Origin: an uncultured Planctomycetales bacterium
GTDB taxonomy: Bacteria; Omnitrophota; Gorgyraeia; Gygaellales; Profunditerraquicolaceae
Assembly: GCA_964427405.1 (NCBI GenBank)
Contig: CAYRUB010000007.1
Coordinates: 25,364 to 89,363 of the forward strand
Direction of reading: 5' to 3'
DNA length: 64,000 bases
Notes under the pieces: generated by a model
Told to the model about the DNA's origin: nothing
The model's input: the letters and a program-made list of their open reading frames with translations, nothing else
Database searches by the model: none
Position numbers and translations under genes: made by a program
Part shown: positions 5,691 through 64,000 of the stretch, in pieces
Position numbering within the stretch: position 1 is the first letter of the stretch
How the letters are laid out: every line of letters begins with the position of its first letter

Positions 5691-6955
5691 ATTTTATCGG
5701 GATGCGTAATTCTTCCTGTAATCGCCGAGGCTGCGGCTACCGCCGGATTAGAAAGATAAACAAATGATTTCGGGCTGCCCATTCTTCCCAGAAAATTCCT
5801 GTTAGTCGTAGCGATAGCGACCTCGCCATCAGCTAAAATTCCCATATGCCCGCCTAAGCACGGCCCGCAGGTCGGGGTTGAGAATACGCCGCCGGCTCTA
5901 ACAAAAATTTCAGCCAAGCCTTCTTCAACCGCCTGTAAATAAATCTTTTGTGTTGCCGGAAAAACAATTAATTTTACCCCCTTGGCCACCTTCCTACCCT
6001 TAAGTAAAGAAGCAGCAATACGTAAATCTGAAATCCGGCCATTAGTACATGAGCCGATAACTGACTGATCGATCTTTATGTTTTTCAGGCTATTAACCGG
6101 CTTGGTATTACTTGGCAGATGCGGACAGGCCACTTGCGGCTCAAGTTTCGTAACACCCCATTCATATATTTTCTCATAATGGGCATCCTTGTCAGAATAA
6201 TAAAATTTAGGTTTACGCTTAAAGCCCGCGACATATTTTTTAGTTTTTTCATCAGGTTCAATTAAACCTGCCCTTGCTCCGGCTTCAATAGCCATGTTAC
6301 ACATAGAAAATCTATCATCCATACCTAATCTTTGAATTACCGGGCCGCAAAACTCCATTACCTTATATAGGGCCCCATCCACGCCAATCTGGCCAATGGT
6401 ATAAAGAATAAGGTCTTTGCCTCCTACCCATTTGTTTAGCTTACCTTTATATATAAACTTTATAGATGCCGGAACCCTTAACCAGCACTTGCCGTCAATA
6501 TAAGCGCGGGCTAAATCAGTTGAGCCCATACCAGTGGCATAAGCACCTAAGGCCCCATAAGTACAAGTATGGGAATCCGCTCCGATAATCAGGTCTCCGG
6601 GCAGGACAATTCCTTTTTCAGGAAGCAGCGCGTGCTCAATACCCATGCATCCGATTTCAAAATAGTTCTTTATCCCCTGCTCTTTGGCGAAATCAGCCAA
6701 AACCTTGCATTGATTGGCGCTTTTTAAATCTTTAGCCGGGGCGAAATGATCCGGGACTAAAACAATTTTATTTTTGTTAAAAACTTTTTTAAAACCTGAT
6801 TTTTTAAACTCTGAAATAGCTAAAGGCGCGGTGATATCGTTAGCCAAGGCAACATCAACTTTAGCCTGGGTAAACTCGCCGGGCTTAATTGACTTTTGGC
6901 CAGAATGCTTTAATAAGATTTTTTCCGCGATAGTGTAGGGCATTTTTAAAATCAA
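5687..6955 (-). CDS. leuC: 3-isopropylmalate dehydratase large subunit
   Basis: 422 aa aconitase-family catalytic domain with an Fe-S ligand region (CGPC), lying 5' of leuD. Confidence 0.88.
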   Translation of the reverse strand: MILKMPYTIAEKILLKHSGQKSIKPGEFTQAKVDVALANDITAPLAISEFKKSGFKKVFNKNKIVLVPDHFAPAKDLKSANQCKVLADFAKEQGIKNYFEIGCMGIEHALLPEKGIVLPGDLIIGADSHTCTYGALGAYATGMGSTDLARAYIDGKCWLRVPASIKFIYKGKLNKWVGGKDLILYTIGQIGVDGALYKVMEFCGPVIQRLGMDDRFSMCNMAIEAGARAGLIEPDEKTKKYVAGFKRKPKFYYSDKDAHYEKIYEWGVTKLEPQVACPHLPSNTKPVNSLKNIKIDQSVIGSCTNGRISDLRIAASLLKGRKVAKGVKLIVFPATQKIYLQAVEEGLAEIFVRAGGVFSTPTCGPCLGGHMGILADGEVAIATTNRNFLGRMGSPKSFVYLSNPAVAAASAITGRITHPDKI

Positions 6956-6971
6956 GAGGACGTTTCTATTT

Positions 6972-8216
6972 TTATCCTTTGAACTTCTTTACTATAAGAG
7001 AGGCGTTGTGCCCACCGAATCCTAAAGAATTAGACATGCAGGCTGTTAGGTTCGCTTTGCGCGCTATATTAGGCACGTAATCCAGGTCGCACTCCGGATC
7101 AGGATGTTCGTAGTTGATAGTAGGAGGAACAACTCCGTCTCTAATCGCTAAACAACAGGCCACAAACTCCACTCCGCCTGCCGCTCCCAAAAGATGCCCG
7201 GTTACAGACTTCGTGGAAGAAACCATTACCTTCTTGCTATAATCGCCAAATGACTTCTTTATAGACAAGGTCTCGATTTTATCATTTAATTTAGTTGAAG
7301 TTCCATGCGCGTTTATATAAGAAATATCGGAAGGATTCATCCGGCCGTCTTTTAACGCCATAGTTATTGCCTGAGCAGCCCCCGCTCCATCAGGATCAGG
7401 CGCGGTTATATGGTAAGCATCACAACTCATACCGTATCCAACAATTTCAGCGATAATATTGGCATTTCTTTTTTGAGCATGTTCTAAGGTCTCCAAGACA
7501 ACCAAACCGCTCCCCTCAGCCATTACAAAACCATCACGGTCGCGGTCAAACGGACGGCTGGCCTTCTGAGGATCATCATTCCTGGTAGAAAGCGCCCTTA
7601 ACGCGCAAAAACCACCCACCGCGGTAGGCACAATACAACTTTCCGTACCTCCGGTAAGCATTACATCCGCGTCTCCATAAAGGATCGTCCTATACGCCTC
7701 GCCTATGGCATGCGAACCCGAAGCGCAGGCAGTAACTACGCAAGAATTCGGGCCTTTTAACCCATGAATAATCGCGACCAGGCCGCTTGCCTCATTAACA
7801 ATAAGCATAGGAATAAGAAACGGTGATAACCTGGAAGGCCCTTTGCTAAGCAAAACTTTATGTTCTTCTTCAACAGTATGCAAACTTCCGATACCTGAAC
7901 CAATGATCGTACCAAGGCGGGTTCTATCCTCTTTATCTAAATCTAAACCGGAAGATTCCATTGCCTGTTTAGCGGCAGCTACAGCAAACTGTACAAACCT
8001 TGCCGTTCTTTTAATATCTTTAAGGGAAATCCCATAATGAGTAGGGTCAAAATTCTTTACTTCCGCCGAAATACGGGAATCAAAAGCTGACGCATCAAAA
8101 CTGGTAGTCGGCCCGACCCCGCTTTTGCCATCCTTTAAAGATTGCCAAAAGCTAGGGACATCATTACCTACCGGTGTGATTACGCCTAAACCTGTAATTA
8201 CTACTCTTTTTTTCAT
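6972..8216 (-). CDS. fabF: 3-oxoacyl-ACP synthase II
   Basis: 414 aa. VVITGLGVITPVGN N-terminus, the active-site Cys region (ACASGSHAIG) and the His-His motifs of KAS II. Confidence 0.93.
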   Translation of the reverse strand: MKKRVVITGLGVITPVGNDVPSFWQSLKDGKSGVGPTTSFDASAFDSRISAEVKNFDPTHYGISLKDIKRTARFVQFAVAAAKQAMESSGLDLDKEDRTRLGTIIGSGIGSLHTVEEEHKVLLSKGPSRLSPFLIPMLIVNEASGLVAIIHGLKGPNSCVVTACASGSHAIGEAYRTILYGDADVMLTGGTESCIVPTAVGGFCALRALSTRNDDPQKASRPFDRDRDGFVMAEGSGLVVLETLEHAQKRNANIIAEIVGYGMSCDAYHITAPDPDGAGAAQAITMALKDGRMNPSDISYINAHGTSTKLNDKIETLSIKKSFGDYSKKVMVSSTKSVTGHLLGAAGGVEFVACCLAIRDGVVPPTINYEHPDPECDLDYVPNIARKANLTACMSNSLGFGGHNASLIVKKFKG

Positions 8217-23939: not shown

Positions 23940-26693
23940 TTAAAACTTCATACGGTAGTAAGCGCGGATAATGTGCTGGGTATCGAGTGTAGTAAGACTG
24001 CCCCCGAAGGGATCCTGGGTATAATCAATACTACTGCTGTTAATATACCCCTCTCCGTATTCCAGGACCAGCTGGGCATCCTTGGAAAAAGAATAATAAA
24101 ACGACGAGAAGAAATTGTGGTGTCCGATCATCTTGTCTTTCCCTGCCTTAAGATTATCGACGTCTTTGAGCATGGAATAAACATATTTCAGGACTATGCC
24201 GATTCTTTCCGTAGGGGTGATCACGAATTCACAGCCGCCGTGGTTCATGTTTTCCGAGTTCTGCCCGGCGAGTTGAAATTCATTGTTGGTATAATCGAAA
24301 TAAATCTGGAACTTATCGGGTATAGGGGTTAATCTTAAGCCAGTCTTATAGATATTATAATAAGGATACGGCGCTTGAGGGAAATATCCCTGGTCGTAGA
24401 GATAGGCGACCTTCTCGCGGTAAAGCTTGCCGTTCTGGGAATACGTCGTCCAGCTGCTGGAATTATATATACCGTTGGGATAACTGCCGTAGGTCAGGTA
24501 ATAATCGTTGGTGATCTCGTATACTCCGTTCAAAGACATCCAATTGAAAAAGGCATATTCCAAGCCCAGTGAACCCGTGACCAGAGAGGGGTCTTCTCCG
24601 TCGGGAACGGCACTATTAAGAAAATATTCACCCGTATCGGAATCATAAAGAAAAGGGTCCACCCCGCCCTTGGTTAGCGGCAGGCAATGGTATATACCCA
24701 GCCCCTTAACGGTCAGCTTGTCGCCTACCTTCAGGGTTATCTCATCCCGCGCGACATTCTCGATGAACTTGCCGTTAACATTATGCACGTTGCGCATGTC
24801 AAAAAGGTTGGTCAGGCTATCCTGATACTGGAACTCTGTGCGAAAACCGACAGTATTCCTGCCGACATCTATGCCGTCTCCAATGCGAGTAGCCCACAAC
24901 TCGTCAAAATTCACCCCCGAACCTGTGCCCCCGCCAAAACGCCCATACGGCTTGCGGAAAGTAAGATAACGGGACCAAAACATATCGTCGCGGGTATTAG
25001 CGAAAGAGGAAAGCTCGGAATTGAAATTCTGGTCCATGTGCGCGCCGTAAAATTTGGTCTTTACCAGGAAATCCTCCTCCTTGTTCTTCCTGATGCCGTC
25101 ATAACCATACTCCACGTCTTTAAGGCTTTCCAGCGGATAACGGTTGACCAGGTTAAAATAATAAGCGTTTCCCCGGGCATCGCTTTTATATTCCGCGTTG
25201 GTCAGGTCGTATCTGGAAAACGAGGTGAGCACCTCACCCTGCAGTTTCAGGCCATCGAATATTTCGTATCCTAAATCCAGGCCGCCGACATAGTTTTCAC
25301 TGTCCAAATCCATACTGCTATCGGTAGTGAAACCGTGACGGGATGTAAAGGTCGCGCCAGCTACCGCCCTTTCACCGAGAGCCTGCTTGAGACGGACGGC
25401 GGCGATAATGTTATCCACCTCGCCGTAATCCTGCCAGAGATGTTTCGGAGTGGCCACAGTCGCGCTGAGAGAAGTAGTCTCCGTAGGCTGGCTGGAAAAA
25501 GAAACCCCGCGCAAGGCAGTCAGATAAGTCCCGCTGCCGTCCTTAGACAAGAAGGCCAGAGAATTGTCATAATAACCCTTGGTGAAATCAACAGGGGTGG
25601 TTCTGGTATTCACGTTGCCTGTCTGATAACGGCGAAGCCAAAGACTGTTCTCCCACCACTTATGGTGATTGGTAATATTCAAAGGGTCATCCGAAGTCAA
25701 GGCCTGATCCTGGTAAGCTATCGGAAACACCCTTACCTTGGTGCTGCCGTTGACATAATCAACCCAAAGTTCCCTGATCGGCTGAAACCCGGTGCTTATC
25801 TTTGTCTCCGGAACAGTTAAAGTATCCGGATAAGGATAAAAATTCCCGGAAACGTCAAAAGAAACGACTTTACCATTAACTATTTTCGCCTCCGGCAAAG
25901 CGAAACTATTGCCGAAAATCCTGGAATAAGCGATCTGGTTGACGGTATACTGGGTGCTCCCGCTGTATAAAAGCTGGAGATCAACTTTATCGTCGTAAGC
26001 AGTGGTAAGAGACATCGTATCGCTTTTCCCCGCGAAACTCCAGGGATCGACAACCAAGTTGGCGTGCACATTGAAACCGTCATCTTTATTGGTAGTATCC
26101 AGATTCAAGTTAAGGCTTTGATAGACATTCTTATTGTAAGTATTAAAACCGTTGTTCAACGCGTCGTAAGACTGCATCCTCCAGTTGCGCTCGTTCAAAT
26201 CGTAGTTGGAACTATTCCAGATGAAGTCGCCGTTGGAACTAACCCCGAAACTCAACTGGGCCTCTCCGCTAATCTTCATCCACTCCGTGGACTGTTTTTT
26301 CTTATCTCCATATCTATCAAGTGGTTTAGTCTCTGTTTTTAAAGGATCCACGGACTGTTCGGTTGCCTGACGGCCGGATTCCTGGCTTTCGAGATCCTTC
26401 AAGACGCTATCAAACGCCTCCTCCCTGGATGCAGCGGAAGGCTTGATTTCCGGATTACCGGAGGAAGCAAAAATCTCATTCACGTATTTCTTGGCGGTTT
26501 GGTTTTCCGGATCGGCAAACAATACTTTTTCAAACTCCGCCAGGGCTTCCTCGTATTTTCCCTGCTTGTAATAATTTATCCCTGATTCACAAAGGTATTC
26601 AACCGCCTGGCCAGAGGCTAAGGCTTGTTCAGTGGAAACGAGCAACAATAACGAACCCACAATGAAAAACACAATCAAAAACTTTCTCAACAT
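23940..26693 (-). CDS. Large secreted outer-membrane-type protein: N-terminal TPR motif plus a ~800-aa predicted beta-barrel domain
   Basis: 917 aa. Signal peptide, a TPR-like YYKQGKYEEALAEFEKVL, a Y/N/G/T-rich region of alternating hydrophobicity, and a C-terminal ...YYRMKF aromatic end. Confidence 0.6.
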   Translation of the reverse strand: MLRKFLIVFFIVGSLLLLVSTEQALASGQAVEYLCESGINYYKQGKYEEALAEFEKVLFADPENQTAKKYVNEIFASSGNPEIKPSAASREEAFDSVLKDLESQESGRQATEQSVDPLKTETKPLDRYGDKKKQSTEWMKISGEAQLSFGVSSNGDFIWNSSNYDLNERNWRMQSYDALNNGFNTYNKNVYQSLNLNLDTTNKDDGFNVHANLVVDPWSFAGKSDTMSLTTAYDDKVDLQLLYSGSTQYTVNQIAYSRIFGNSFALPEAKIVNGKVVSFDVSGNFYPYPDTLTVPETKISTGFQPIRELWVDYVNGSTKVRVFPIAYQDQALTSDDPLNITNHHKWWENSLWLRRYQTGNVNTRTTPVDFTKGYYDNSLAFLSKDGSGTYLTALRGVSFSSQPTETTSLSATVATPKHLWQDYGEVDNIIAAVRLKQALGERAVAGATFTSRHGFTTDSSMDLDSENYVGGLDLGYEIFDGLKLQGEVLTSFSRYDLTNAEYKSDARGNAYYFNLVNRYPLESLKDVEYGYDGIRKNKEEDFLVKTKFYGAHMDQNFNSELSSFANTRDDMFWSRYLTFRKPYGRFGGGTGSGVNFDELWATRIGDGIDVGRNTVGFRTEFQYQDSLTNLFDMRNVHNVNGKFIENVARDEITLKVGDKLTVKGLGIYHCLPLTKGGVDPFLYDSDTGEYFLNSAVPDGEDPSLVTGSLGLEYAFFNWMSLNGVYEITNDYYLTYGSYPNGIYNSSSWTTYSQNGKLYREKVAYLYDQGYFPQAPYPYYNIYKTGLRLTPIPDKFQIYFDYTNNEFQLAGQNSENMNHGGCEFVITPTERIGIVLKYVYSMLKDVDNLKAGKDKMIGHHNFFSSFYYSFSKDAQLVLEYGEGYINSSSIDYTQDPFGGSLTTLDTQHIIRAYYRMKF

Positions 26694-26805
26694 AATGTTA
26701 TGCGTAGACCCCCCGCGCGTAAATATGTGAATATTAAAGGTGAACGATTATTAATAAGTATTATAGTAAATTTACCGACGTTAACAAGAAAAAACTTTTG
26801 CCCCT

Positions 26806-26831
26806 AAAATAAAGGGGACGGTTCTATTTTT
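26806..26831. repeat. REP element, inverted orientation (aataaaggggacggttctatttt)
   Basis: Reverse complement of the 24-bp REP consensus aaaatagaaccgtcccctttatt. It forms an inverted pair with 26869-26893. Confidence 0.8.
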
Positions 26832-27582
26832 CTTGTAATTTTCGCACTCCTCGCGACATTTCATCTTTAAAAATAGAACCGTCCCCTTTATTTAAAATAG
26901 AACCGTCCCCTTTATTTTTTGACGGCCTTCCTCTATTTTCCCTTTTGTTATTTATCTGATAATATTCTTGGAGCTTATTGACAAAGGTTTGGCTACCAAT
27001 ATATAATTTATTCTCAAGTAGTTCTGAATTTATTATACTGCTGTCAACCACAAAATCAGCATATTGCCGCTGCCGGGATCTATCAGAATCGGATAAACCA
27101 CAGTAAGCCGGACTTTGAGTAAGAAGACTGTCTGGTATGCCTTTCGCGTAAAGGTTATAACTGGAAAAACGATATTCTGAAGGATGCGTCACTATGCCCG
27201 CCCGGACAGAATTAAGCTCGATGTATTTGCCGCATTGTAATAAATAAGAATCTGCCTCAATGATATTACTTTTAAATCTATCCTGCCATAAATGCCCGCA
27301 ATAACTATAGATCTTTCTATAATAGTAAAAATAGCTTAAATTAACCTGCTTCATAAATCTGGATAACATACTTAGCGAATTAATGAGCAGAACTAAATGA
27401 ACGTGATTATCCATAAGGCAATAGTGTAAGATATTTACCGCATTATAATCTTTCCATTGCCTTAATAAAGTGTAATATTTTAGTTTATCGTTATCACTAT
27501 GAAAAACGTTCTGGCGGTTATTGCCCCTGCAGATAATATGTAGAGCCGCATTAAGTGGAATAACCCTCTTTGTTCTTGGCAT
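26824..27582 (-). CDS. IS200/IS605-like Y1 (HuH) transposase; REP-associated tyrosine transposase (RAYT)-type
   Basis: HVHLVL (HuH) and a downstream catalytic-Tyr region (YRKIYSYCGHLWQDRF). The 3' end reads through the REP copies (translated KGDGSILNKGDGSIF), so the functional protein is probably shorter. Confidence 0.75.
   Translation of the reverse strand: MPRTKRVIPLNAALHIICRGNNRQNVFHSDNDKLKYYTLLRQWKDYNAVNILHYCLMDNHVHLVLLINSLSMLSRFMKQVNLSYFYYYRKIYSYCGHLWQDRFKSNIIEADSYLLQCGKYIELNSVRAGIVTHPSEYRFSSYNLYAKGIPDSLLTQSPAYCGLSDSDRSRQRQYADFVVDSSIINSELLENKLYIGSQTFVNKLQEYYQINNKRENRGRPSKNKGDGSILNKGDGSIFKDEMSRGVRKLQEK
26869..26916. repeat. Tandem pair of REP elements in direct orientation
   Basis: Two head-to-tail copies of aaaatagaaccgtcccctttatt. 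They lie inside the 3' end of the RAYT reading frame as called. Confidence 0.8.
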
Positions 27583-27634
27583 AAAACCCTCCTTCTACTG
27601 CTAATAGACGTAAAAGGAGGATAAATCTAACTAG

Positions 27635-27658
27635 AAAAATAGAACCGTCCCCTTTATT
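27635..27658. repeat. REP element, direct orientation
   Basis: aaaaatagaaccgtcccctttatt, 53 bp upstream of the RAYT start. Confidence 0.8.
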
Positions 27659-28040
27659 CCCCTATTTTCTTTTTCTCGTAATGCGCCTGCGCCTTGATTA
27701 CCTTACGATCAGGGCTAAAATAAAAAACCTCAACGGCAATCAAGCTGCCAACACCCCGATACTGGATTGTAATACTGTTTACTCCAGCGCAAACCGTCAT
27801 TAACTCAAAATGTAGATCAGGAGCCATTTCTAATGCCTTAGCCCAATAATCACCCACCGCGTCTTTTCCTTTTAACAGACCAGAAGAGTTGCCGGTAACC
27901 TTAGCGATCATCGGAGAAATCATCTCGAAATCATCACTATAATGAGAAAGAACCTTCGCCAGGTCATGGCTATTCCAGGCGTTAATCCAATCATGGGCAA
28001 AATCCATTGCGAATTTTTCTTCAATCATTATTTTTTGCAC
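27654..28040 (-). CDS. SnoaL/NTF2-like (DUF4440, ketosteroid-isomerase-like) small protein
   Basis: 128 aa. DFAHDWINAWNSHD and YSDDFEM are typical of NTF2-like folds. The gene is bracketed by REP copies. Confidence 0.6.
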   Translation of the reverse strand: MQKIMIEEKFAMDFAHDWINAWNSHDLAKVLSHYSDDFEMISPMIAKVTGNSSGLLKGKDAVGDYWAKALEMAPDLHFELMTVCAGVNSITIQYRGVGSLIAVEVFYFSPDRKVIKAQAHYEKKKIGE

Positions 28041-28071
28041 CTTCCGTAGAACCTAAAAACACTTCTATATA

Positions 28072-28098
28072 AAAAAATAGAACCGTCCCCTTTATTTT
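28072..28098. repeat. REP element, direct orientation
   Basis: aaaaaaatagaaccgtcccctttatttt, between the NTF2-like gene and the helicase gene. Confidence 0.8.
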
Positions 28099-29437
28099 AA
28101 ACTAGACTGGCGAAGCGGTCGTTAAATTCATAGATGCGTTCGTCAAATATGACATCACTATGAACCACTGGACGTTTAAGTTTGATACCATTCAGGCAAG
28201 TGCATCGGCTAAGCGCCACATATAACTGGCCATGGGTAAATGCGCCATGCCCAAGGTCAATGATCACTTTATCAAAAGTCTGGCCCTGGCTCTTGTGAAT
28301 GGTTATCGCCCAGGCCAGCTTTAGGGGGTATTGCGCAAATTCCCCCACCACCTCATCTTCTATCTTATCCTCCTCCTCATTGTAGCTATATTCGATCTTC
28401 TCCCACTTCGTAATCGGGACATCATACTCAAAACCATTAATATCCACAACAATGGAATCTTGTGATAAAGCCGCCACCTTGGCCAGCGTGCCATTCACCC
28501 AGCGCTTATCCGGATCATTTTTTATCAAGATTACCTGCGCGCCCTTTTTAAGCTTTAATGATGCTTCGGTAGGATATGCCGGCTCTTCGAATTTACCGGT
28601 AGCATAAGCTTTATATGCAATCTCTTTACCGGGAAGTTTGGATAAACGCTCCTGGTTTATCGCGTTGGCCAGGCTATTGGTCGTAGTCAGGATCACGGTT
28701 GAGTCTTTCCGGGAGGCCGTCACATCTTTTTGCACCTTCTTGTTTAATATCTTAAGGTCCTCATCGGTATGCTCTTTATTCCTTACCCGGTTTAAAAGCT
28801 CCATAAACGAGCTATCTTTCTGCCGATAGATAGTCGACAACTCAATTGTCCTAAGATGGCAATCGTCAAATACTTTAGCGCTGAAGAAATACGGGCTTAA
28901 ATAACGCTCTCCCAAAAGCTGCCTGGCTTCATTTTCCACCACCGGAGACAGCTGAAAAAGATCACCGAAAAATACCATTTGGACTCCGCCAAACGGCGAC
29001 TTCATCCTGCCACGATTAAGACGTAACGCGTAATCAATACCATCCATAAGGTCTGAGCGAACCATAGAGACCTCATCGATAATTATCATATCGAGATTCT
29101 CAAATATACTTCTATCCCTGAGGTGCTTTATCGTATCCTTTTGGATGATCTTGGGAGGAAACCTGAAAAAAGAATGAACAGTCTGGCCGCCGACATTAAC
29201 CGCGGCAACACCTGTCGGAGCTAAAACGATTATATTCTTGCCGGTATTGGCCTTAAAATATTTTAAAAGAGTGGATTTGCCGGTGCCTGCCTTGCCGGTG
29301 ATAAAAAGGCACTCCTTGGTGCGCTCCATAAGATCAAACGCCGACTTGAATTCATCATTTATATCAAGGTTCCCCGGAAGTTGATCTTCGACTATTGTTT
29401 GGTTAGTGAAAAATTTCATATTTTCTTTCTTGATCAC
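28097..29437 (-). CDS. Pif1/RecD-like SF1 DNA helicase
   Basis: 446 aa. Walker A (TGKAGTGKST), DEVSMV, GDLFQLSPV, and a C-terminal TIHKSQGQTFD...ALSR. Confidence 0.8.
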   Translation of the reverse strand: MIKKENMKFFTNQTIVEDQLPGNLDINDEFKSAFDLMERTKECLFITGKAGTGKSTLLKYFKANTGKNIIVLAPTGVAAVNVGGQTVHSFFRFPPKIIQKDTIKHLRDRSIFENLDMIIIDEVSMVRSDLMDGIDYALRLNRGRMKSPFGGVQMVFFGDLFQLSPVVENEARQLLGERYLSPYFFSAKVFDDCHLRTIELSTIYRQKDSSFMELLNRVRNKEHTDEDLKILNKKVQKDVTASRKDSTVILTTTNSLANAINQERLSKLPGKEIAYKAYATGKFEEPAYPTEASLKLKKGAQVILIKNDPDKRWVNGTLAKVAALSQDSIVVDINGFEYDVPITKWEKIEYSYNEEEDKIEDEVVGEFAQYPLKLAWAITIHKSQGQTFDKVIIDLGHGAFTHGQLYVALSRCTCLNGIKLKRPVVHSDVIFDERIYEFNDRFASLV

Positions 29438-30261
29438 TTCCAGGTAATTTTGGCAGGGTTACGCATAGGTATCCGGCTATAACGGTATTTCGGATGGCCA
29501 ACCATCATTACCGCCCCGGCTATCGCGTGTGAAGATAAACCTGTAAACTTTCTTATTTTTTCCGACATATTGATTGCCATATTCACATAACCTGCCCAGC
29601 AAGCGCCCAGACCGCAGCCAAATGCCGCCAGTTCCAAATACGTTGCCGCTATCGTACATGACTGAGGAACCATCGGGTCATCCTTAATACCCTGGGCAAT
29701 AACTATGCAAGGCGCGTTGCGGCAAATCAAATCTTCTTCATTCTTCCAGGCGCTAAGTAAACGGTCAAAACGAAAAGATATCGCCATCTGATTCTTGGCT
29801 TCCAAAAGCTCTTCAATCCATTCAACGATTAAACCACCTAATTCATGCACTTTATCTTTACCCATAATCGTAATCCAACTCACCGGCTGGCGATTGATCC
29901 CGGAGGGAGCATAACGGGCAATATCCAAGAGTTTCTCAATGGATTCTTTAGCTACAGGCTCATCTTTATAGTTACGAATCGAGCGCCGGCTTTTAAGGAA
30001 AAGCTCTGTTTGTTCGGCGTTCGGAAGACTGGCGTAATCCAAGCGCATGGCATCTTTAACATCCATTGTCGAGAGTTTGATCGAACCCTTCGGGCAAAAA
30101 GCAAAACAATGCCCGCAGTTAATACAAGCCTCCCCGCCTCCCGGTATAAATTCCGGCACCCGCTCTGCATTCATCTTTAATATATGCATCGGGCAAACCT
30201 CAACGCATTTTCCATCTCCGGCGCAGGTTTTCTTATCGACTTCAATAGTGATCATTAACAA
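29434..30261 (-). CDS. 4Fe-4S ferredoxin domain fused to a nitroreductase-family flavoenzyme
   Basis: The N-terminus has two Cys clusters (CAGDGKCVEVCP, CINCGHCFAFCP). It is followed by a nitroreductase fold (RRSIRNY...). The start overlaps the helicase gene by 4 nt. Confidence 0.75.
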   Translation of the reverse strand: MLMITIEVDKKTCAGDGKCVEVCPMHILKMNAERVPEFIPGGGEACINCGHCFAFCPKGSIKLSTMDVKDAMRLDYASLPNAEQTELFLKSRRSIRNYKDEPVAKESIEKLLDIARYAPSGINRQPVSWITIMGKDKVHELGGLIVEWIEELLEAKNQMAISFRFDRLLSAWKNEEDLICRNAPCIVIAQGIKDDPMVPQSCTIAATYLELAAFGCGLGACWAGYVNMAINMSEKIRKFTGLSSHAIAGAVMMVGHPKYRYSRIPMRNPAKITWK

Positions 30262-30274
30262 CCCTCATAATAGA

Positions 30275-31255
30275 CTACGCCTTAACTATCACTCCAAATA
30301 AAGTATAAATTTTACACCTTAATTCGTCATCACATGCATTGTACTCATCTATCAACTTAATAATCCTATCAACTTGAACTTTCGATTGTTTTGGCAATAA
30401 AGAAATCTCAACCAATTCATTTTTATTAAGATACTGATGCAGATACTTATAAGGGTCTATTTTTTGAGGAATTGCTTGAGAAAGAATAAGATTCCAGCAA
30501 CATTGAGCATCAATACCATTTAAAAACCGTTCAAACTCTCTGTATTCCTTAAGAGAAACTTCACCTACTAGTTCAATTTTCTGCTGAAACCACTTTTGAA
30601 AGCGCGCCACCTGTTCCCTATAAGACGTAAAGACTTTCTCAATATCAATAGATCCAGAATCGGAGATGAACTTTCTGCTGAGAGCGTTCCAGTTTTTCCA
30701 AGCCAGCAAGTCTCTGGAATATACGATGAAGTGAATAGTCTTCCCACCTCCCGATGGATATGAAACCTGCCAATTGGCTCTTACCATTTCATTATGACAA
30801 ATATAATTCCTCAATTCTTGAACGAAATGATGCTCTGGATTATCAAGAAACACTTCCTTGATTTTTTCTTGGTAGCCATCTATTGGGATTTTCTTAATAG
30901 CATTTCTCGACATATCTACTAACGCCATTGCACTAGTGGTGGCTGAAAACATACCTCTCCTAATCGCTAATTCAAGTTGAGCAATCCGTATACGATTAAC
31001 AGGAAACCAAAACTCTTCAGTATTTTCTTCAGACTTAAAGGTATCAATTGAATCAAATAGATTTACTACAGCATCAGAAAATATATCGAAAGAAAGACTT
31101 AAATTTGCCAATTCTGCGTGGTACATATACCCGGGATGTTCTTTTATTGCCTCTCTAGTCAGAATAAAATCTTGGAAGTAAGCTTTCTCCAAAGATTCCC
31201 TTGTCCAAGGAAGCTGACCCAATGTAACTGCAGAAATTCTATTTGAATTATCCAT
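30275..31255 (-). CDS. Hypothetical protein with a candidate HEPN-type Rx4H motif (ELRNYICHNE)
   Basis: 326 aa with no family match recognised by eye. RNYICH fits the RNxxxH HEPN signature. Last gene of the repeat-punctuated array. Confidence 0.4.
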   Translation of the reverse strand: MDNSNRISAVTLGQLPWTRESLEKAYFQDFILTREAIKEHPGYMYHAELANLSLSFDIFSDAVVNLFDSIDTFKSEENTEEFWFPVNRIRIAQLELAIRRGMFSATTSAMALVDMSRNAIKKIPIDGYQEKIKEVFLDNPEHHFVQELRNYICHNEMVRANWQVSYPSGGGKTIHFIVYSRDLLAWKNWNALSRKFISDSGSIDIEKVFTSYREQVARFQKWFQQKIELVGEVSLKEYREFERFLNGIDAQCCWNLILSQAIPQKIDPYKYLHQYLNKNELVEISLLPKQSKVQVDRIIKLIDEYNACDDELRCKIYTLFGVIVKA

Positions 31256-31343
31256 ACTTCTTAAACAATCTTTTGTATGCCGCCGCTTAAACCTGTTTCA
31301 TTTTTTCTCATCACAAATGACATTCCGATAAAACTTAGGGAAG

Positions 31344-31401
31344 CTTCTATAGTTTTTGCTTCCTCGGCCGTACCCACTTTGACCCCGGAAACGACACTTA
31401 G
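31344..31401. repeat. Cassette-associated ~58-bp conserved intergenic element, copy 1
   Basis: cttctatagtttttgcttcctcggccgtacccactttgaccccggaaacgacacttag. Over 80% identical to copies at 32239-32296 and 33045-33102. Confidence 0.8.
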
Positions 31402-31403
31402 TT

Positions 31404-32180
31404 TTATTTATTAACTTTAAAATCTCTAAATCTGCTATTTTCCTCATAAAAACGCAGATTTTGAATATCTTCATTAACAACAGCTAATATCTTTGTTTTT
31501 GTTTCACTGTTAAATTCATCAAAATTATTAACCAGATTTATAAATTCATCTGCGTTATTAGTTAATTTTCTATTCTGCAACCACCCCTCAAACTTATTTT
31601 TCTGACTATAGTAATTTCTATGTCTTTTGATATAAAGATCATATGCTTCTCGATTTTTATCATTTACAACTTTAAAATTGTTATTTTCTAAGTTTAGGTC
31701 TTTCTCGATAGGATCAAAAAACTGCGCCATACTCCCATACAACTTGTTTTTTAAATCAAAAATATTATAGAAATGATAATCTCGAGATATTGACGTAATC
31801 TCAGCATTACTAAAATTTAACCTCTTGGAAATTGTTATGATTTTTTCATAATAACGTGCGGCTTCTTCTTTAGGCATGCTCGAATCCCATCTTCCCATAC
31901 GCATCATAGTAGAAATATTCATTTCGGTAACTGGAACAGCCAAATCGTGTAAATATTTTAGGAGCTCATCTGCTCTGTGAATCTTTTCTTGAAGCTCAAC
32001 TTCGAGCCCAAGCCCCTTAAAAGATTTAACTGTGTCGGGACAAAGAAAAATTAAGCATAGAAAAGCAGCACAGAATGGCGTCAAAGAAGCACTAGCTTTA
32101 TTTTCGTATGACAACCAACCTCCTAAAACAATAAGCAGAATAAAAAAAGCTAAAAGTATTAAATTTATTATATTACTCAT
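31404..32180 (-). CDS. Hypothetical membrane protein (two N-terminal TM helices plus a soluble domain)
   Basis: 258 aa. TM1 IINLILLAFFILLIVLGGWL and TM2 FCAAFLCLIFLCP. No recognisable domain. Confidence 0.5.
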   Translation of the reverse strand: MSNIINLILLAFFILLIVLGGWLSYENKASASLTPFCAAFLCLIFLCPDTVKSFKGLGLEVELQEKIHRADELLKYLHDLAVPVTEMNISTMMRMGRWDSSMPKEEAARYYEKIITISKRLNFSNAEITSISRDYHFYNIFDLKNKLYGSMAQFFDPIEKDLNLENNNFKVVNDKNREAYDLYIKRHRNYYSQKNKFEGWLQNRKLTNNADEFINLVNNFDEFNSETKTKILAVVNEDIQNLRFYEENSRFRDFKVNK

Positions 32181-32238
32181 ACCCTACCTCCATTTTCTCT
32201 AATAAATAGAGCCTAATTCAATACAATATTTATGGCTA

Positions 32239-32296
32239 ATAATCATTCGCTTCTATAGTTTTTACTTCCTCGGCCGCACCCACTTTAACCCCGGAA
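32239..32296. repeat. Cassette-associated conserved intergenic element, copy 2
   Basis: cttctatagtttttacttcctcggccgcacccactttaaccccggaaacatcccctaa. Confidence 0.8.
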
Positions 32297-32346
32297 ACAT
32301 CCCCTAATTTATTCTCCTTGAAATTCCGCTATCAAATCTTCCCATT

Positions 32347-32919
32347 TTAATGCCCACTTTTACAAAACTGTGTGTTAATCAAAGTTTTCAACTCATGAAA
32401 ATCTTTTTCTAAATTTGGTAATTTCGCTATTAATTCAGGTAATTTTTTAAAAAAAGACCCAGGGTTGTCAACTATTACCAGATTCCCCTCGTTTAGTAAC
32501 ATAATATATGTAAAAAGATGTAACCTTTCCCTGATAGTTACTTGATCCCTATCCATAGAAGCAAGCAGCATACAACCATTTCTCCTTGCTTCAAATATAA
32601 TCGGCTCTTGTTTTGCAAAATTATGGCCTTCACTTAAAATTAAAGTATTTCTTCCCAATTCTTTATTCTTTAATTCGTTTACATCATTTATTCGTAATTT
32701 AACAATCCCTTTAGCGAATTTAACATCTTCTCCTTTTTTATCAATAGAATCTATCACGGCGCCTTTACCTGCGCCTCTTGCCCCTATCAGCAAAATCATA
32801 TCGCCATAGTTTAAATTAAAAGTGACATTAAACAAACCATACTCTCTATTAATACCGGATTTTTCTCTCCTATTACTTCTAGTCAAATCTTTAACTTGTA
32901 ACGGAATAATGTTACTCAT
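32347..32919 (-). CDS. Miniature ABC/SMC-like P-loop ATPase with degenerate motifs
   Basis: 190 aa. A beta-hairpin plus Walker A (FNVTFNLNYGDMILLIGARGAGKGAVIDSI) of the ABC/RecF/SMC type. LSEGH in place of the LSGGQ signature. LVIVDNPG in place of the DEP Walker B. A C-terminal SGH. Confidence 0.45.
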   Translation of the reverse strand: MSNIIPLQVKDLTRSNRREKSGINREYGLFNVTFNLNYGDMILLIGARGAGKGAVIDSIDKKGEDVKFAKGIVKLRINDVNELKNKELGRNTLILSEGHNFAKQEPIIFEARRNGCMLLASMDRDQVTIRERLHLFTYIMLLNEGNLVIVDNPGSFFKKLPELIAKLPNLEKDFHELKTLINTQFCKSGH

Positions 32920-33044
32920 ATTTTTTATTCTCCTTAAGAATTACTCTCGATTATTTTGAAATCCAGAAACACACTGTTTATTTACCCCCAGCCTTCACCC
33001 CAAAGTAATAAAGGAGACATCTCTATTTTTCTTATTTTGGCTAC

Positions 33045-33102
33045 CTTCTATAAATTTTACTTCCTCGGCCGCGCCCACTTAAACTCCGAAAGCGACGCTT
33101 AG
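33045..33102. repeat. Cassette-associated conserved intergenic element, copy 3
   Basis: cttctataaattttacttcctcggccgcgcccacttaaactccgaaagcgacgcttag. Confidence 0.8.
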
Positions 33103-33117
33103 TTTAAAGAAACTTCC

Positions 33118-33702
33118 CTATTGCTTTATATCTTTTTCTATGTTGTATGTCTCAAAAAATACTTTTATAAAGAACAGTTCCAACAAATGCCTAAAAGCAA
33201 TATTTACTTGCACCATCGCAAAAGTAAAAAAATATGAAGAAAACATAGTAATGAAAATTTTGATAATTATTTTAAACCATGTTGCCATTTTGGATATAAA
33301 TTGAGGATGATAGAAATATGTATCCCTAATGATTGTTTTGGCTGCATATAATATTGCAAAAGAAATGATAATAAATACCGCAGAGAGGAACAGCTTTTCT
33401 CCAACAAAACAGTAAATCCTGCTCCTACTTGCATCTTTAGTAGCCCTAGATGCGCTAAATGACAGTGCCCCCAAAGCAATAATAGAACCAATAACTGTAA
33501 TAATAATCTTAAGGTCTTCTACACTTTGTTCTGTGCGTAGATTCATGACCTTACTAAAATAAAATTGCCCCAACCATAGAACAAAATAAATCGGGATTAA
33601 TAGTACCACTTCTTTTCCGATCCATTTTATTTTAGTTATAGCGGATTGCCTTAATAAAGTTTTCATATCAAATGCTCGTATTTTTTTGTCGATATATTCC
33701 AA
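33118..33702 (-). CDS. Hypothetical polytopic membrane protein (~4 TM helices)
   Basis: 194 aa with four hydrophobic segments. No recognisable domain. Confidence 0.5.
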   Translation of the reverse strand: MEYIDKKIRAFDMKTLLRQSAITKIKWIGKEVVLLIPIYFVLWLGQFYFSKVMNLRTEQSVEDLKIIITVIGSIIALGALSFSASRATKDASRSRIYCFVGEKLFLSAVFIIISFAILYAAKTIIRDTYFYHPQFISKMATWFKIIIKIFITMFSSYFFTFAMVQVNIAFRHLLELFFIKVFFETYNIEKDIKQ

Positions 33703-33736
33703 AATACTGAACTATACAAAAATTAACCCAACCAAC

Positions 33737-33777
33737 AAAAAAAAGACAACCCCCTATTTTAGAGGATTGCCTTATAG
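33737..33777. repeat. Copy 2 of the A-run/palindrome element
   Basis: aaaaaaaagacaaccccctattttagaggattgccttatag. Matches 19401-19442. Confidence 0.6.
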
Positions 33778-33827
33778 TCGTTTATTCTTGAACCCCATAA
33801 AGGGCTCCTTGTGTAGTTTATACTATT

Positions 33828-34442
33828 TTAGATTCCTAATATCTTTTTGATAAATACCGGCCGCGCATAAAACGCACGAGTCTTTGAACCATGCCCTGAC
33901 CCTTTTGTGCGTGCCTGTATCCACTTGCCATCTTTACCGGTCAAACTCCCAAACCCTTGAGTAATAAGCTTATTGCGAATGAAATCATAATCAGCTTTAA
34001 CTTCTAGGATAAGTTCATCTGTTTTGGCAAAATCCAGGCTCGTAACTTCCAATAATTCGGCTTTTTCCGCATTCTTTCCATACCACATTACAGCGCAGAA
34101 AATAATTGCTTTGAGTTTCGACCAACAATGACTCTCAAAGAATGAGTTCGCCTTTAGTTCTTCGGGATTAATCATGGTGATAGCCATCGTCTCTTTAGGC
34201 ACAAGCTTATCTTTTACATAATGAAAGCTGACGGATTTTAATTCATAAGTAAGGCCATTAGGAGCTTTAGAAACATTTGTTTCCAATCCAGCCAAGCGCT
34301 CTAAAATTAGGCCTTTCCAACCCTTGTTTTGTCTCCCGGTTTCAAAGGTAGTAACGCCATATTTTAAAGCTAACTTTCTTAAATCTTGCCCGATATACTT
34401 TTTTAAATTACTTATTGCTGTTGCGCGTGTGATAATCTTCAT
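33828..34442 (-). CDS. MutH/Sau3AI-family type II restriction endonuclease
   Basis: 204 aa. NKGWKGLILERLAGLETNVSKAPNGLTYELKSVS aligns with E. coli MutH [36 protein letters not shown]. Confidence 0.6.
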   Translation of the reverse strand: MKIITRATAISNLKKYIGQDLRKLALKYGVTTFETGRQNKGWKGLILERLAGLETNVSKAPNGLTYELKSVSFHYVKDKLVPKETMAITMINPEELKANSFFESHCWSKLKAIIFCAVMWYGKNAEKAELLEVTSLDFAKTDELILEVKADYDFIRNKLITQGFGSLTGKDGKWIQARTKGSGHGSKTRAFYARPVFIKKILGI

Positions 34443-34458
34443 AGTATTGAGCAGGTTT

Positions 34459-35337
34459 TCATGTTTTCCCTAAATCATTAAGCCTCTTTATAGAAGTTTT
34501 CAGGTATGATTGTTCTAACTCTATCCCTATAAACTGTCTCTTTCCTCCTACTGCCGCGACGCCGGTAGTAGAGCTACCCGTAAAGGGATCCAATACTATA
34601 TCTCCCGGCTTTGTGGAGGCTAATACAATCCTATTTAACAATTCCAGGGGTTTTTGAGTTGGGTGTTTACCATATATTTTCTCTGCCGAGCCCGGGGCCT
34701 TAATAGACCAAAGACTTAGCATTTGCTTATCGTTATTCATTTTCTTCATCAAGGGATAATTAAAAAAATGCTTACTGTCTTTACTCTTAGCTGCCCAAAG
34801 AATAGTTTCTGTGGAATGAGTAAAATACCTACAGCTTAAATTCGGCGGAGGATTTACTTTAAACCAAGCAATATCATTTAATATCTTGTAGCCCAATCCT
34901 TGCATAGCTGAGCCAACTGTATAAATTATATGTGATGTTCCAGAAACCCAAATTGTGCCATTAGGGGTTAAAACCCTCTGACATTCTCTAAGCCATCTTT
35001 GAGTAAAGATAAAATCCTCTTCAATACCTTTTGAAACATCCCATTTACCTTTATTTACAGAGACTTTCTTTCCAGCATGACAAGTAAACCCACCGTTTGA
35101 CAAAAAATATGGTGGGTCAGCAAAAATCATATCTACTGAGTTTTCAGGTAGCTTAGAAAGAATATCGAAACAATCGTTATTAAAAAGAACAACACTGTGT
35201 TTCTTATCCACAAAATATGGCTTTTCGGGAATATCTTTAATCAAATTAAAGATATCTTTCTTATTAATTGATTTTTCTATAGTTGTGGTAGGCATAACTA
35301 TCGCAGGCAGATTAATAATGTTTTCATTTTGTTCCAT
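34459..35337 (-). CDS. DNA amino-methyltransferase (N6-adenine or N4-cytosine; DPPY then FxGxG order)
   Basis: 292 aa. FADPPYF (motif IV) precedes VLDPFTGSSTTGVAA (motif I). Confidence 0.8.
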   Translation of the reverse strand: MEQNENIINLPAIVMPTTTIEKSINKKDIFNLIKDIPEKPYFVDKKHSVVLFNNDCFDILSKLPENSVDMIFADPPYFLSNGGFTCHAGKKVSVNKGKWDVSKGIEEDFIFTQRWLRECQRVLTPNGTIWVSGTSHIIYTVGSAMQGLGYKILNDIAWFKVNPPPNLSCRYFTHSTETILWAAKSKDSKHFFNYPLMKKMNNDKQMLSLWSIKAPGSAEKIYGKHPTQKPLELLNRIVLASTKPGDIVLDPFTGSSTTGVAAVGGKRQFIGIELEQSYLKTSIKRLNDLGKT

Positions 35338-61337: not shown

Positions 61338-62099
61338 TCACCTAGCATTAAGAAAAGACTTTCTTTTCTTCTCCGGGAATTTCTCTATTGCATAACGCAG
61401 CATTGTCCGCGGTAAAACTTTACAATTCTTACGCAAGAAATTCTCTTCAGCTAATGCATCGCGTTTACCTGCTTCACGCAGCATCCATCCGCAGGCTTTA
61501 TGAATTAAATCTTCTTTATCGCCAAGCAAAAGCTTGCTAATCGCGAAAACATCTTTAAAATCCCCTAACCGGATAAAAGTAAAGGTAGCCAGAATCGCTA
61601 TCCGCCTATCCCAGAGCAAAGGAGATTTGGCCAATTTATAAAGTATTCTCCTGTCTTGATCTATAAGAAATCCACCGATAATCTGGGGAGCGCTTAGATC
61701 AACCAAATCCCAATTATTGATAAATTTTGTGTTTGCCAAATATGCCTTGTATATTTTTTCTTTAGCCCCGGTATCTGCCTTATTAAACTGGCGTACCATA
61801 ATTAAAAGCGCCAAAGCCCTTTCTTCATGAATCTTTGAATGCAAAAGCTTGATTAAATCTGAAAGCGCCAGATCCTGAAACTCTTTTACTATATTTCTGG
61901 TAAGAGCAGCTGTTAAGCCGAGGAAAATATCTCCTTCGGCATATTCGCCTGGCCCGGTTTTAAAGAAACGCTGCAATCCTTTAGCCTTTTCTTTATCCGC
62001 GCCTCGGCGCAGTTGCTTTTCAGCTTCTTCTAATCTACCCATGTTTTTATTATACCTATAAATAGTAAGAACCCAAGCATTTTTAGGGCTTGGGTTCAA
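61338..62099 (-). CDS. DNA alkylation repair protein (AlkC/AlkD HEAT-like repeat family)
   Basis: 253 aa with an AlkD-like sequence (KGLQRFFKTGPGEYAEGDIFLG). Confidence 0.7.
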   Translation of the reverse strand: MNPSPKNAWVLTIYRYNKNMGRLEEAEKQLRRGADKEKAKGLQRFFKTGPGEYAEGDIFLGLTAALTRNIVKEFQDLALSDLIKLLHSKIHEERALALLIMVRQFNKADTGAKEKIYKAYLANTKFINNWDLVDLSAPQIIGGFLIDQDRRILYKLAKSPLLWDRRIAILATFTFIRLGDFKDVFAISKLLLGDKEDLIHKACGWMLREAGKRDALAEENFLRKNCKVLPRTMLRYAIEKFPEKKRKSFLNAR

Positions 62100-62129
62100 A
62101 CACTTTGTAGTTTTTAGCTAACGTAATCC

Positions 62130-62408
62130 TTAAGCAATAACCTTATCAAATTCCTCCATAGTGATTGCGGGAAAACTGGTAAAGGAGATATTGGTCAGTT
62201 TATTTAACGCAACCGAAACTTTCATTACCTCGGAAATACCTGGAAATTCCGTAATCAACACGATGTCGTATTTGCCCAGAAGCGCGTACATAGAGTTGAC
62301 TTTGCCGCCAGCCTTGGTTATTACATCAAGCGCCTTCGTGGTTCTATCGGCCGAAATGCCACCCAGTGCATCCTTACTATACTTACCGTACATAAAAAAC
62401 TTTGCCAT
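62130..62408 (-). CDS. GYD-domain protein
   Basis: 92 aa. MAKFFMYGKYS...GKYDIVLI is typical of the GYD family. Confidence 0.7.
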   Translation of the reverse strand: MAKFFMYGKYSKDALGGISADRTTKALDVITKAGGKVNSMYALLGKYDIVLITEFPGISEVMKVSVALNKLTNISFTSFPAITMEEFDKVIA

Positions 62409-62486
62409 TTTGACACCTCCTTGTTTTATTTCTTATTATAATAATCCAAATATAAATGCTAGGTTATCGAAACTCTAGAAAATTTA

Positions 62487-62726
62487 TTATTTAAAAAAGA
62501 GAGTAAGAACTGATACGAAAAGCGCACATGCAGAAATATAAAATGCCCTATTAGCTACTCTATAAGTTCCCTCAAATTCCTTTATACGAATCCATTCTAA
62601 CACTAAAGGCAACCAACTGCCTTTATTCTGGTATTCTCCATTAGCCCATTCAATTCTGACTTTTCTTAAACCTTCCTTTTCTAATCTTCTAATAAACCCA
62701 TCACGCTCTTGAATAGACAATGTCAT
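62487..62726 (-). CDS. Small membrane protein
   Basis: 79 aa with one TM helix (ACALFVSVLTLFF). Confidence 0.4.
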   Translation of the reverse strand: MTLSIQERDGFIRRLEKEGLRKVRIEWANGEYQNKGSWLPLVLEWIRIKEFEGTYRVANRAFYISACALFVSVLTLFFK

Positions 62727-62862
62727 ATACTACCCCCTTTTTTTACCTAAAACGGTCTCCTAAAATACAAAAACTCGACACGTAACGTAATTATATTTAC
62801 ACTAATAATTTCAATTCTTTTAGGTATTAGAGATTCCATTTCGATATCCATATTCCATTCTT

Positions 62863-63306: not shown

Positions 63307-63423
63307 TTATTTTCTCTACTAAATCTTTTATTTTCTTATATCTCATAATTCTTATCCTTCTAAATAATTATCTTAAATAACTTTAATATAAATTGCTAAA
63401 AGTGGTTATAAAATAAAAAGGGC

Positions 63424-63455
63424 GGTTTTATTTTTAAAAAACCGCCCCTCGAATT
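63424..63455. terminator. Bidirectional-type hairpin terminator
   Basis: A 10-bp stem gggcggtttt/aaaaccgccc with A/T runs on both sides, 3' of the DUF4145 gene. Confidence 0.5.
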
Positions 63456-63981: not shown

Positions 63982-64000
63982 TGGATAAAGTATCTCTGGC

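Follow-up and report, generated by a model that had tools for sequence, protein, structure and literature searches.

A mosaic intergenic repeat at the junctions of a hypervariable single-gene cassette array in Candidatus Omnitrophota, with a RAYT-like transposase gene nearby

A core repeat of approximately 62 nt was found in three copies in a 64,000-nt stretch of contig CAYRUB010000007.1 (hereafter the window) from an uncultured member of Candidatus Omnitrophota, each copy lying between two genes of a short array. This array is low in G+C content (GC), hypervariable and located just upstream of a nitroreductase-ferredoxin gene in an Omnitrophota sub-clade. In the DNA sampled, the core family was confined to such cassette arrays and was nested, in several copies, between inverted arms formed by a 23-nt repeat (the 23-mer), and the points at which homology between related genomes broke off fell at the core or the 23-mer. 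The core is interpreted, with moderate confidence, as the junction of single-gene cassettes within a mosaic intergenic repeat, comparable to the bacterial interspersed mosaic elements (BIMEs) and the Neisseria intergenic mosaic elements (NIMEs), and as a recombination junction for cassette exchange. This interpretation was favored because the genes of the array are unrelated, low in GC and co-oriented, because the array differed between relatives at one locus and because homology switched off at the core.

A repeat search of the window returned one family of three direct copies (31335-31404, 32241-32310 and 33036-33105) that were 77-79% identical over 70 nt, and the 21-mer CTTCCTCGGCCGYRCCCACTT occurred exactly three times in the window but not once in 100 shuffles. 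With boundaries set by an nhmmer profile search, the cores, designated c1, c2 and c3, were placed on the minus strand at 31343-31404, 32249-32310 and 33045-33105, respectively. The core was read on this strand because the array genes, like nearly all genes of the window and all genes around the array, are minus-strand genes; its consensus in gene sense is AAAACTAAG-N4-GTTTCCGGGGTTTAAGTGGGCGCGGCCGAGGAAGCAAAAACTATAGAAG. In this sense, c1 begins at the stop codon of gene 31404-32180, with 87 nt between its end and the start of gene 30275-31255, c2 begins 36 nt after the stop of gene 32347-32919 and ends 68 nt before the start of gene 31404-32180, and c3 begins 12 nt after the stop of gene 33118-33702 and ends 125 nt before the start of gene 32347-32919, i.e., window cores start 0-36 nt past a stop codon and end 68-125 nt ahead of the next start. 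Pairwise identities by BLASTN were 94% between c1 and c2 (50 nt), 82% between c1 and c3 (61 nt) and 87% between c2 and c3 (47 nt). An earlier note, made from the letters of the window alone, had described three near-identical elements at similar distances from stops and starts, and the 82-94% identity, the shared 21-mer and the measured distances agree with that description; its coordinates were on target for the first and third copies and approximately 10-14 nt out of register for the second (32239-32296). Alignment of the copies with their flanks revealed a conserved core centre and variable flanks, with a block of about 30 nt (AAGTGGG..GGCCGAGGAAG..TATAGAAG) kept in nearly all copies between flanks that were unrelated. 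Three observations go beyond the earlier note, namely that the genes are on the minus strand, that the repeat is a mosaic with the core as one of its modules and that a gene resembling those of the REP-associated tyrosine transposases (RAYTs; REP, repetitive extragenic palindrome) lies 3.7 kb away with its cognate 23-nt repeat.

The search for further copies proposed in the earlier note yielded 12 more full copies, together with partial ones, only in related Omnitrophota contigs and between unrelated low-GC single genes. Three contigs of one metagenome (L121-L123) were found with a 23-nt core pattern, and a profile search of these contigs gave nine further cores; with those of two additional contigs (L134, 5789-5847 and 6608-6663; L137, 1624-1684), the full copies numbered 15 (three in the window, two in L121, five in L122, two in L123, two in L134 and one in L137). 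Other junctions of L134 and L137 held degenerate or half cores, partial cores were noted in L128 and L134, and the diverged core of L128 lay within a three-gene block bracketed by 23-mers. All 15 full cores are on the gene strand and between two different open reading frames (ORFs), and at eight of these junctions the core or its left arm is within 0-3 nt of the upstream stop codon. The regularity of this arrangement was most evident in L122, where five cores were present in 4.4 kb with one ORF between successive copies. In some copies the repeated unit exceeds the 58 bp given in the earlier note. Thus, c1 is followed by an extra shared module of about 75 nt (class-B right-hand module, 31270-31342, minus strand; CCCTAAGTTTTA..ATGAAACAGG..GGCGGCAT) that is common to junctions in L122, L121 and L134, and this shared right-hand module also follows the core at L122_3349, at L122_4303 and at the start of L121.

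No core was found outside cassette arrays in approximately 165 kb of the clade, including the rest of the window. Copies at random intergenic sites genome-wide, which the earlier note would have taken as the mark of a generic MITE (miniature inverted-repeat transposable element), were not encountered in this sample, which falls short of whole genomes. Likewise, no core was detected in viral contigs by scanning or in plasmids and phages by BLASTN, and a chimeric peptide of five core reading frames matched none of 5.8 billion proteins; the element does not seem to have been captured elsewhere by gene callers. A set of 120 loci in genome contigs that matched a 17-nt GC-rich core pattern was discarded as chance matches in high-GC genomes.

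Turnover at a fixed position was evident from comparison of loci around the nitroreductase-ferredoxin gene (29434-30261, minus strand; nitroreductase plus 4Fe-4S), a conserved Omnitrophota gene that anchors the hot spot. Orthologues in L133-L141 were 84-92% identical, amino-acid identities being 92% for L133-L136, 90% for L137 and 84-85% for L138-L141. Upstream of this gene, L134 and L137 carried a restriction-modification system followed by small unrelated genes, and no cores were found in the more distant relatives of the 84-85% group. The array was present upstream of the same nitroreductase gene in three lineages, and its gene content was fully different save for a few shared cassettes. 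One break in homology was noted between L122 (1-875) and L137 (803-1684), which matched at 97.6% with no difference in the first 421 nt, eight differences in a 132-aa gene and about eight in the last 45 nt of the core; past CTATAGAAG there was no homology, other cassettes following in L122 and a DNA methylase in L137. One methyltransferase cassette occurred in L134, L137 and L121 with different neighbors each time, its left edge following a 23-mer, a degenerate core or the 3' half of a core and its right edge consisting of the stop codon and 23-mer remnants.

A further break was noted on the other side of the nitroreductase gene. Across the nitroreductase and helicase genes, the window and L137 were homologous up to exactly the 23-mer at 28096, and homology resumed at the start codon of the LDcluster4 gene; the window therefore holds, from the helicase stop to the LDcluster4 start, an additional block of about 4.2 kb (23940-28096, as compared with 8760-8852 in L137). 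This block contains, in order, a 23-mer, a SnoaL gene, a second 23-mer, the RAYT-like gene, a repeat cluster and a gene for a 917-aa tetratricopeptide repeat (TPR) protein. Given its presence relative to the 90%-related L137, the RAYT unit seems to have been inserted into the hot spot. In L128, a 23-mer and RAYT gene were found directly after the nitroreductase stop, in the position held by the helicase gene in the window.

Several cores were flanked in the alignment by the 23-mer AATAAAGGGGACGGTTCTATTTT and its reverse complement. Both inverted arms were present at L121_1644, L122_1710 and L122_2759, and such two-armed copies folded into long hairpins (-34 to -44 kcal/mol); L122_3349 and L134_6608 had the left arm only, and the arms of c3 and L137_1624 were degenerate. 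The left arm of c3, read directly from the sequence, is a degenerate 23-mer in REP(+) orientation (33106-33123, minus strand; AATAGGGAAGTTTCTT) that overlaps the stop codon of the upstream gene, and its right arm (33007-33044, minus strand) consists of a stretch resembling the 3' end of the RAYT gene (GTAGCCAAAATAAG) followed by an inverted 23-mer (AAAAATAGAGATGTCTCCTTTATT). The 3' end of the RAYT gene itself showed homology, over 46 nt, to the stretch that joins core and right arm (GAAGCCAGTCAAAACAAGAAAGATAGAACC...). Derivation of the core itself from RAYT coding sequence or 5' untranslated region (UTR) was considered and rejected, Smith-Waterman scores being no better than those of shuffles except in the 3' flank.

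The RAYT-like gene of the window (26824-27582, minus strand), 3.7 kb downstream of the array, encodes a Y1 (HUH) transposase with a Pfam Y1_Tnp match of E=2e-15 and with the HUH motif (HVH) and the tyrosine motif YIELNSVRAG visible in its sequence. Among NCBIfam models the best was REP_Tyr_transpos (55 bits, cutoff 80), compared with 21 bits for IS200. Homologues of the protein numbered more than 1000, and those with names were all from metagenome-assembled genomes of Candidatus Omnitrophota. The window contains five exact 23-mers in 64 kb, all in 26808-28096 and within 1.3 kb of this gene. One (REP(+), 27636-27658, minus strand) is located 53 nt upstream of the start codon, and three form a cluster at the 3' end of the gene (26808-26916, minus strand), where tandem REP(+) copies at 26894-26916 and 26870-26892 are followed by a 39-nt spacer (26831-26869) and an inverted copy (26808-26830). 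The fifth, also REP(+), belongs to a core-less junction directly after the stop of the PIF1-helicase gene (28062-28096, minus strand), where it is followed by TTTATATAGAAG; the same form, a 23-mer and then TATAGAAG, was noted at 5400 in L137. A deletion model, in which core-less junctions would result from the joining of two AAAAC|TA repeats, was rejected because the sequences observed (TTTTTTTATATAGAAG and TTTTTAGATATGGAAG) lack the predicted AAAAC.

Inverted flanking of the RAYT gene by its own repeat was noted in the window (27636-27658 in plus sense and 26808-26830 inverted) and, over at least six other genomes, also at the homologues in L126/L127, L128, L129, L130 and L131/L132, whose proteins are 71-88% identical to that of the window. 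On both sides of these homologues the 17-nt heart of the 23-mer was identical or differed at one or two positions, one copy being approximately 70-90 nt upstream of the start codon and the inverted copy over the stop codon. The ORF of the window encodes 252 aa, as compared with 225 aa for its homologues, because two 23-mers have been inserted in its 3' end. This insertion, between CGTCAAAA and CAAGAAAAATAG, consists of two tandem 23-mers and the 39-nt spacer and causes no frameshift; the sequence of the spacer lies 1.8 kb downstream in L128. The 23-mer can also be read as coding sequence. For example, a 220-aa protein of L121 (982-1644) ends in ...NKGENKEDGSIF and the RAYT ORF of the window in ...KNKGDGSILNKGDGSIFKDEM..., and therefore insertions at the 3' ends of genes would extend or replace C-termini and supply a stop codon. 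A degenerate 23-mer with three mismatches was noted far from the RAYT gene, on the plus strand at 6950-6972 between an aconitase-family (leuC-like) gene and a ketoacyl-synthase gene. A third junction repeat, absent from the window, is a perfect GTAG "double-foot" palindrome (CCTGGTAGGTGCCGGTCGCGACCGGCACCTACCAGG) that in places lies inside a split core (L134, 7214-7433, 8575-8752 and 9915-10001; L128, 1515-1550; L121, 2993-3016); it would be the canonical REP of another, unseen RAYT.

These break points suggest that the core is a portable recombination junction that functions in DNA, and gain, loss and exchange of cassettes would then result from crossovers within the core or next to it. Either of two enzymatic routes is possible. 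The RAYT could act on single-stranded REP-linker-REP hairpins, as TnpA_REP of Escherichia coli does on BIME linkers in vitro, or host homologous recombination could act on incoming DNA, as has been proposed for NIME arrays. The first route is disfavored by arm-less cores (c1, c2 and several others are without 23-mer arms) and by arrays that have no RAYT gene nearby (none within 10 kb on either side of the L134 array, nor from 6.6 kb upstream, where the contig ends, to 10 kb downstream of the L137 array). Simple homologous recombination is disfavored by the shortness and divergence of the cores, which at about 60 nt and 75-94% identity are marginal for RecA-dependent exchange. Other points that weigh against the junction interpretation concern both the repeat and the transposase. 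Thus, the RAYT-like protein scores below the NCBIfam cutoff for REP-associated transposases (55 as opposed to 80 bits), and the 23-mer, which is without a GT[AG]G foot and whose A/T stem (AAAATA/TATTTT) is weak, is not a canonical REP, although atypical REPs without GTAG are known for TnpAY1 subclasses 2.6 and 3 (PMC6006769). The exact crossover point could not be mapped because the flanks are themselves semi-conserved, and no cleavage, excision product or circular intermediate was observed. Finally, the localization of the core is based on about 165 kb rather than whole genomes, so that a dispersed population of cores could still exist, and strict co-orientation with placement right after stop codons would also fit a role in RNA.

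That last point is the basis of an explanation considered distinctly improbable, namely that the core is a cis-acting RNA element, a 3'-UTR or inter-cistronic signal that would affect how the mRNA is stabilized or processed or how the next gene is translated, with the 23-mer arms closing a long hairpin. The core is always on the sense strand, just after stops and 68-125 nt before the next start, the armed hairpins of -34 to -44 kcal/mol are followed by TTTATT, and REP hairpins are known as mRNA stabilizers (PMC3733652). In the first 12 copies, moreover, a stem (GTTTCC-GG/CC-GGAAGC) was 93.5% paired, and all of its variants were Y-to-Y changes opposite G, compatible with wobble pairing on the sense strand only. 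This candidate stem was rejected since it showed no compensatory changes, since pairing in the shuffle control equaled that observed and since it was gone with 15 copies; a second, competing stem was worse than the first, had no compensatory pairs and was likewise gone with 15 copies. In agreement with the earlier note, which had found no conserved hairpin, RNAalifold predicted no pairs for the 15 core copies and individual cores folded no better than shuffles. Rfam 15 gave no match in the window at gathering thresholds and, at E<=10 over 30200-33900, only chance-level matches, none of them on a core, and there was no tRNA or tmRNA match to the core. Neither a sigma-70 promoter nor an intrinsic terminator consensus was found in the core, and the sigma-54, extracytoplasmic function (ECF) sigma factor and integration host factor (IHF) consensus sequences fit it poorly by eye. 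Nor would a role in RNA account for the breaks in homology at the core between genomes. Of the possibilities raised in the earlier note (a protein-binding site, a repeated promoter or UTR and a recombination site), the recombination site is the one favored by the loss of homology at the core. Neither a promoter or terminator nor a known RNA family found support. Such breaks could be accommodated by a different explanation, judged unlikely, in which the core is a passive selfish or relic repeat, i.e., a MITE-like or REPIN-like (REP doublet forming hairpin) fragment that may derive from the RAYT unit by internal deletion and has piled up in a tolerant AT-rich accessory region with no role of its own, its break points merely reflecting general recombination that uses any repeat. 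Copies in all states of decay (two, one or no arms, half cores and cores split by another palindromic repeat), a right flank homologous to the 3' end of the RAYT gene, as a deletion derivative should have, the lack of conserved structure by RNAalifold and a copy identity (75-94%) not above that of neighboring orthologous genes (85-98%) are all consistent with this explanation. Random insertion, however, would not be expected to give 15 of 15 copies co-oriented with genes and eight within 0-3 nt of a stop, copies were found only at cassette junctions of one conserved hot spot in three lineages and nowhere else in about 165 kb, and the block of about 30 nt was retained in nearly all copies despite unrelated flanks.

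Resemblance of the locus to an integron raised the question of a true site-specific cassette system, an integron analogue or an array like the clusters of attC sites lacking integron-integrases (CALINs), in which a dedicated recombinase, its gene located elsewhere in the genome, would use the core as its attachment site. The genes are compact, co-oriented, unrelated and for the most part of unknown function, a conserved site starts at the stop codon of each, and content varies among close relatives at a fixed chromosomal locus, all in keeping with such a system; in addition, TAAAAC...GTTTTA, which brackets c1, L122_3349 and L121_891, recalls the AAC/GTT polarity of attC. However, a regex scan of 30-34 kb on both strands found no attC R-box pair (RYYYAAC/GTTRRRY) at 50-150 nt spacing, and the five pairs per strand in the whole window included none at a core, as expected from the earlier note, which had reported these motifs to be absent. 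There was also no conserved hairpin or extrahelical-base architecture, the element is conserved at its centre and variable at its ends, the reverse of attC, and the 23-mer arms, with GTTC on the left and GAAC on the right, have the polarity opposite to that of attC R-boxes. Pfam scans of about 60 ORFs of the window, which found housekeeping genes, detected no integrase or other recombinase, and the precomputed Pfam hits that are listed for the genes called around the L134 and L137 arrays included no tyrosine or serine recombinase. The likeness to attC arrays drawn in the earlier note therefore holds for cassette-array anatomy and turnover and not for membership in the integrons, and a site-specific system of this kind is very doubtful. 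A bolder form of the junction interpretation, also judged unlikely, is that a domesticated Y1 HUH transposase of the RAYT type operates the array as a platform for cassette capture, in effect a second and mechanistically independent "integron". Single-stranded arm-core-arm hairpins would then take the role of attC, and cassettes would be cut out and inserted at the core by single-stranded DNA cleavage and strand transfer, in a hot spot that also holds restriction-modification systems.

The four cassette genes of the window, all on the minus strand, have a GC of 30-36% as compared with about 43% for the window. The first (33118-33702) encodes a protein of 182-194 aa that by eye is a multi-pass membrane protein and has no family match; the second (32347-32919) encodes a 190-aa protein with weak similarity to P-loop/ABC ATPases; the third (31404-32180) encodes a 258-aa protein without a family match, the N-terminal 57 residues of which resemble a 277-aa cassette protein of L122; and the fourth (30275-31255), the last before the nitroreductase-ferredoxin gene, encodes a 326-aa protein without a Pfam match. 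In the window as in the relatives, cassette proteins were unrelated to one another, co-oriented and mostly without family matches, and PADLOC defense models applied to ten of them gave nothing significant. Upstream of the array in gene sense is a restriction-modification pair consisting of a MutH/Sau3AI-like nuclease gene (33828-34442) and an N6/N4 methylase gene (34459-35337), and downstream, in order, are the genes for the nitroreductase-ferredoxin, a PIF1/Dda-like helicase, a SnoaL-like protein and the Y1_Tnp transposase. In each lineage examined, a different restriction-modification system was noted directly upstream of the array or of the nitroreductase gene (window, 33828-35337; L134, 1036-4233; L137, 1-4523; L138, 7198-8689), the types present being type II MutH/Sau3AI-like, type I HsdR, RE_endonuc with C5 methylase and HATPase_c_3, and N6/N4 methylase; the locus looks like a defense-island hot spot. 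Between the genes for the restriction nuclease and the first cassette protein, the spacer (33743-33827) resembles a core in outline (TAAACTAC...AAACGACTATAAGG), with a small hairpin (GAGCCCTTTATGGGGTTC) inside, and a terminator-like hairpin and T-run follow at 33773-33743; this spacer may be a decayed junction element. A second low-GC stretch (62001-64000; 33.8% compared with about 43%), with small ORFs at 62863-63306 and 63592-63981, is present at the edge of the window, and no core, 23-mer or palindrome match was found in it.

Integrons are, to our knowledge, the only well-understood store of co-oriented single-gene cassettes behind conserved sites. The present locus has integron-like anatomy and turnover between strains in a poorly studied phylum, by way of a mosaic repeat tied to RAYT and REP instead of attC and IntI. 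Mosaic REP-linker repeats, RAYTs and cassette arrays are each already known. What is new is their combination, i.e., one repeat per gene, co-oriented cassettes of ORFan genes, turnover at a fixed locus without attC or IntI, and RAYT/REP sequences in the junctions, in Omnitrophota; no description of such a combination was found in the literature searched. If exchange is driven by the repeats, a concrete function would be at hand for RAYT/REP systems, the cellular role of which is debated, and the neighboring ORFans, found beside restriction-modification genes in all three lineages, would be an exchangeable accessory pool that possibly includes defense genes. If the repeats are passive, the locus would still be a clean natural case of short repeats setting recombination break points, and if an HUH-driven cassette platform were the true explanation, it would be a new kind of system.

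Comparison with known systems places the locus among three of them without identity to any. Like chromosomal integron arrays and CALINs, it consists of single-gene cassettes that share one orientation and are for the most part of unknown function, with a conserved site of about 60-140 bp beginning at the stop codon or close to it; in both, sites are homogeneous within a lineage and content differs among relatives at a fixed locus. It differs from them in that R''/R' boxes and a conserved bottom-strand hairpin are lacking, that no IntI was found in the approximately 60 ORFs scanned, that conservation is in the centre of the site rather than at its ends and that wobble-type variation is on the gene strand rather than the bottom strand. 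The NIMEs, composed of dRS3 and RS elements, are units of about 50-150 bp between 20-bp inverted repeats that form arrays beside variable genes, mixed with other repeats (PMC1797815), and have been proposed to act as recombination enhancers that favor the exchange of genes next to them with incoming DNA (PMC1797815). Both thus have repeat units enclosed by inverted repeats, in arrays by variable genes. NIME arrays, however, are mostly pure repeat between genes, whereas in the present array single repeat units and single genes take turns; the sequences are not similar, the phylum is different, and a filamentous-phage recombinase has been proposed for dRS3, whereas a RAYT-like Y1 transposase is encoded nearby here.

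The BIME-1 and REPIN elements of E. coli and Pseudomonas, with their RAYTs, share with the present repeat an inverted pair of short repeats around a conserved linker (PMC3333891, PMC3337134, PMC6006769) and a mosaic build in which repeat and linker modules occur in many combinations. The same short repeat is also found, inverted, on both sides of a single Y1 HUH transposase gene, as in the REPtron, i.e., a RAYT gene flanked by its inverted repeats (PMC3333891, PMC6006769). In E. coli, the L linker of BIME-1 is conserved, and TnpA_REP acts on it in vitro, with cuts at C|T sites of the linker and recombination of linker and iREP sites (PMC3333891). The hairpin layout of BIMEs and REPINs is seen here in L121_1644, L122_1710 and L122_2759, is degenerate in c3 and is absent from c1 and c2. 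A canonical REP has 5' GT[AG]G at the foot of a GC-rich imperfect palindrome and is present in many dispersed intergenic copies, a description that the 23-mer does not fit, the arm that it forms not being a GC-rich palindrome with a GT[AG]G foot. In contrast with BIME-1 and REPIN linkers, the core is longer (about 60-85 nt), better conserved than its arms and often arm-less, and its copies in the DNA sampled, rather than being dispersed, are strictly co-oriented with genes and gathered at the junctions of variable arrays and near the transposase gene.

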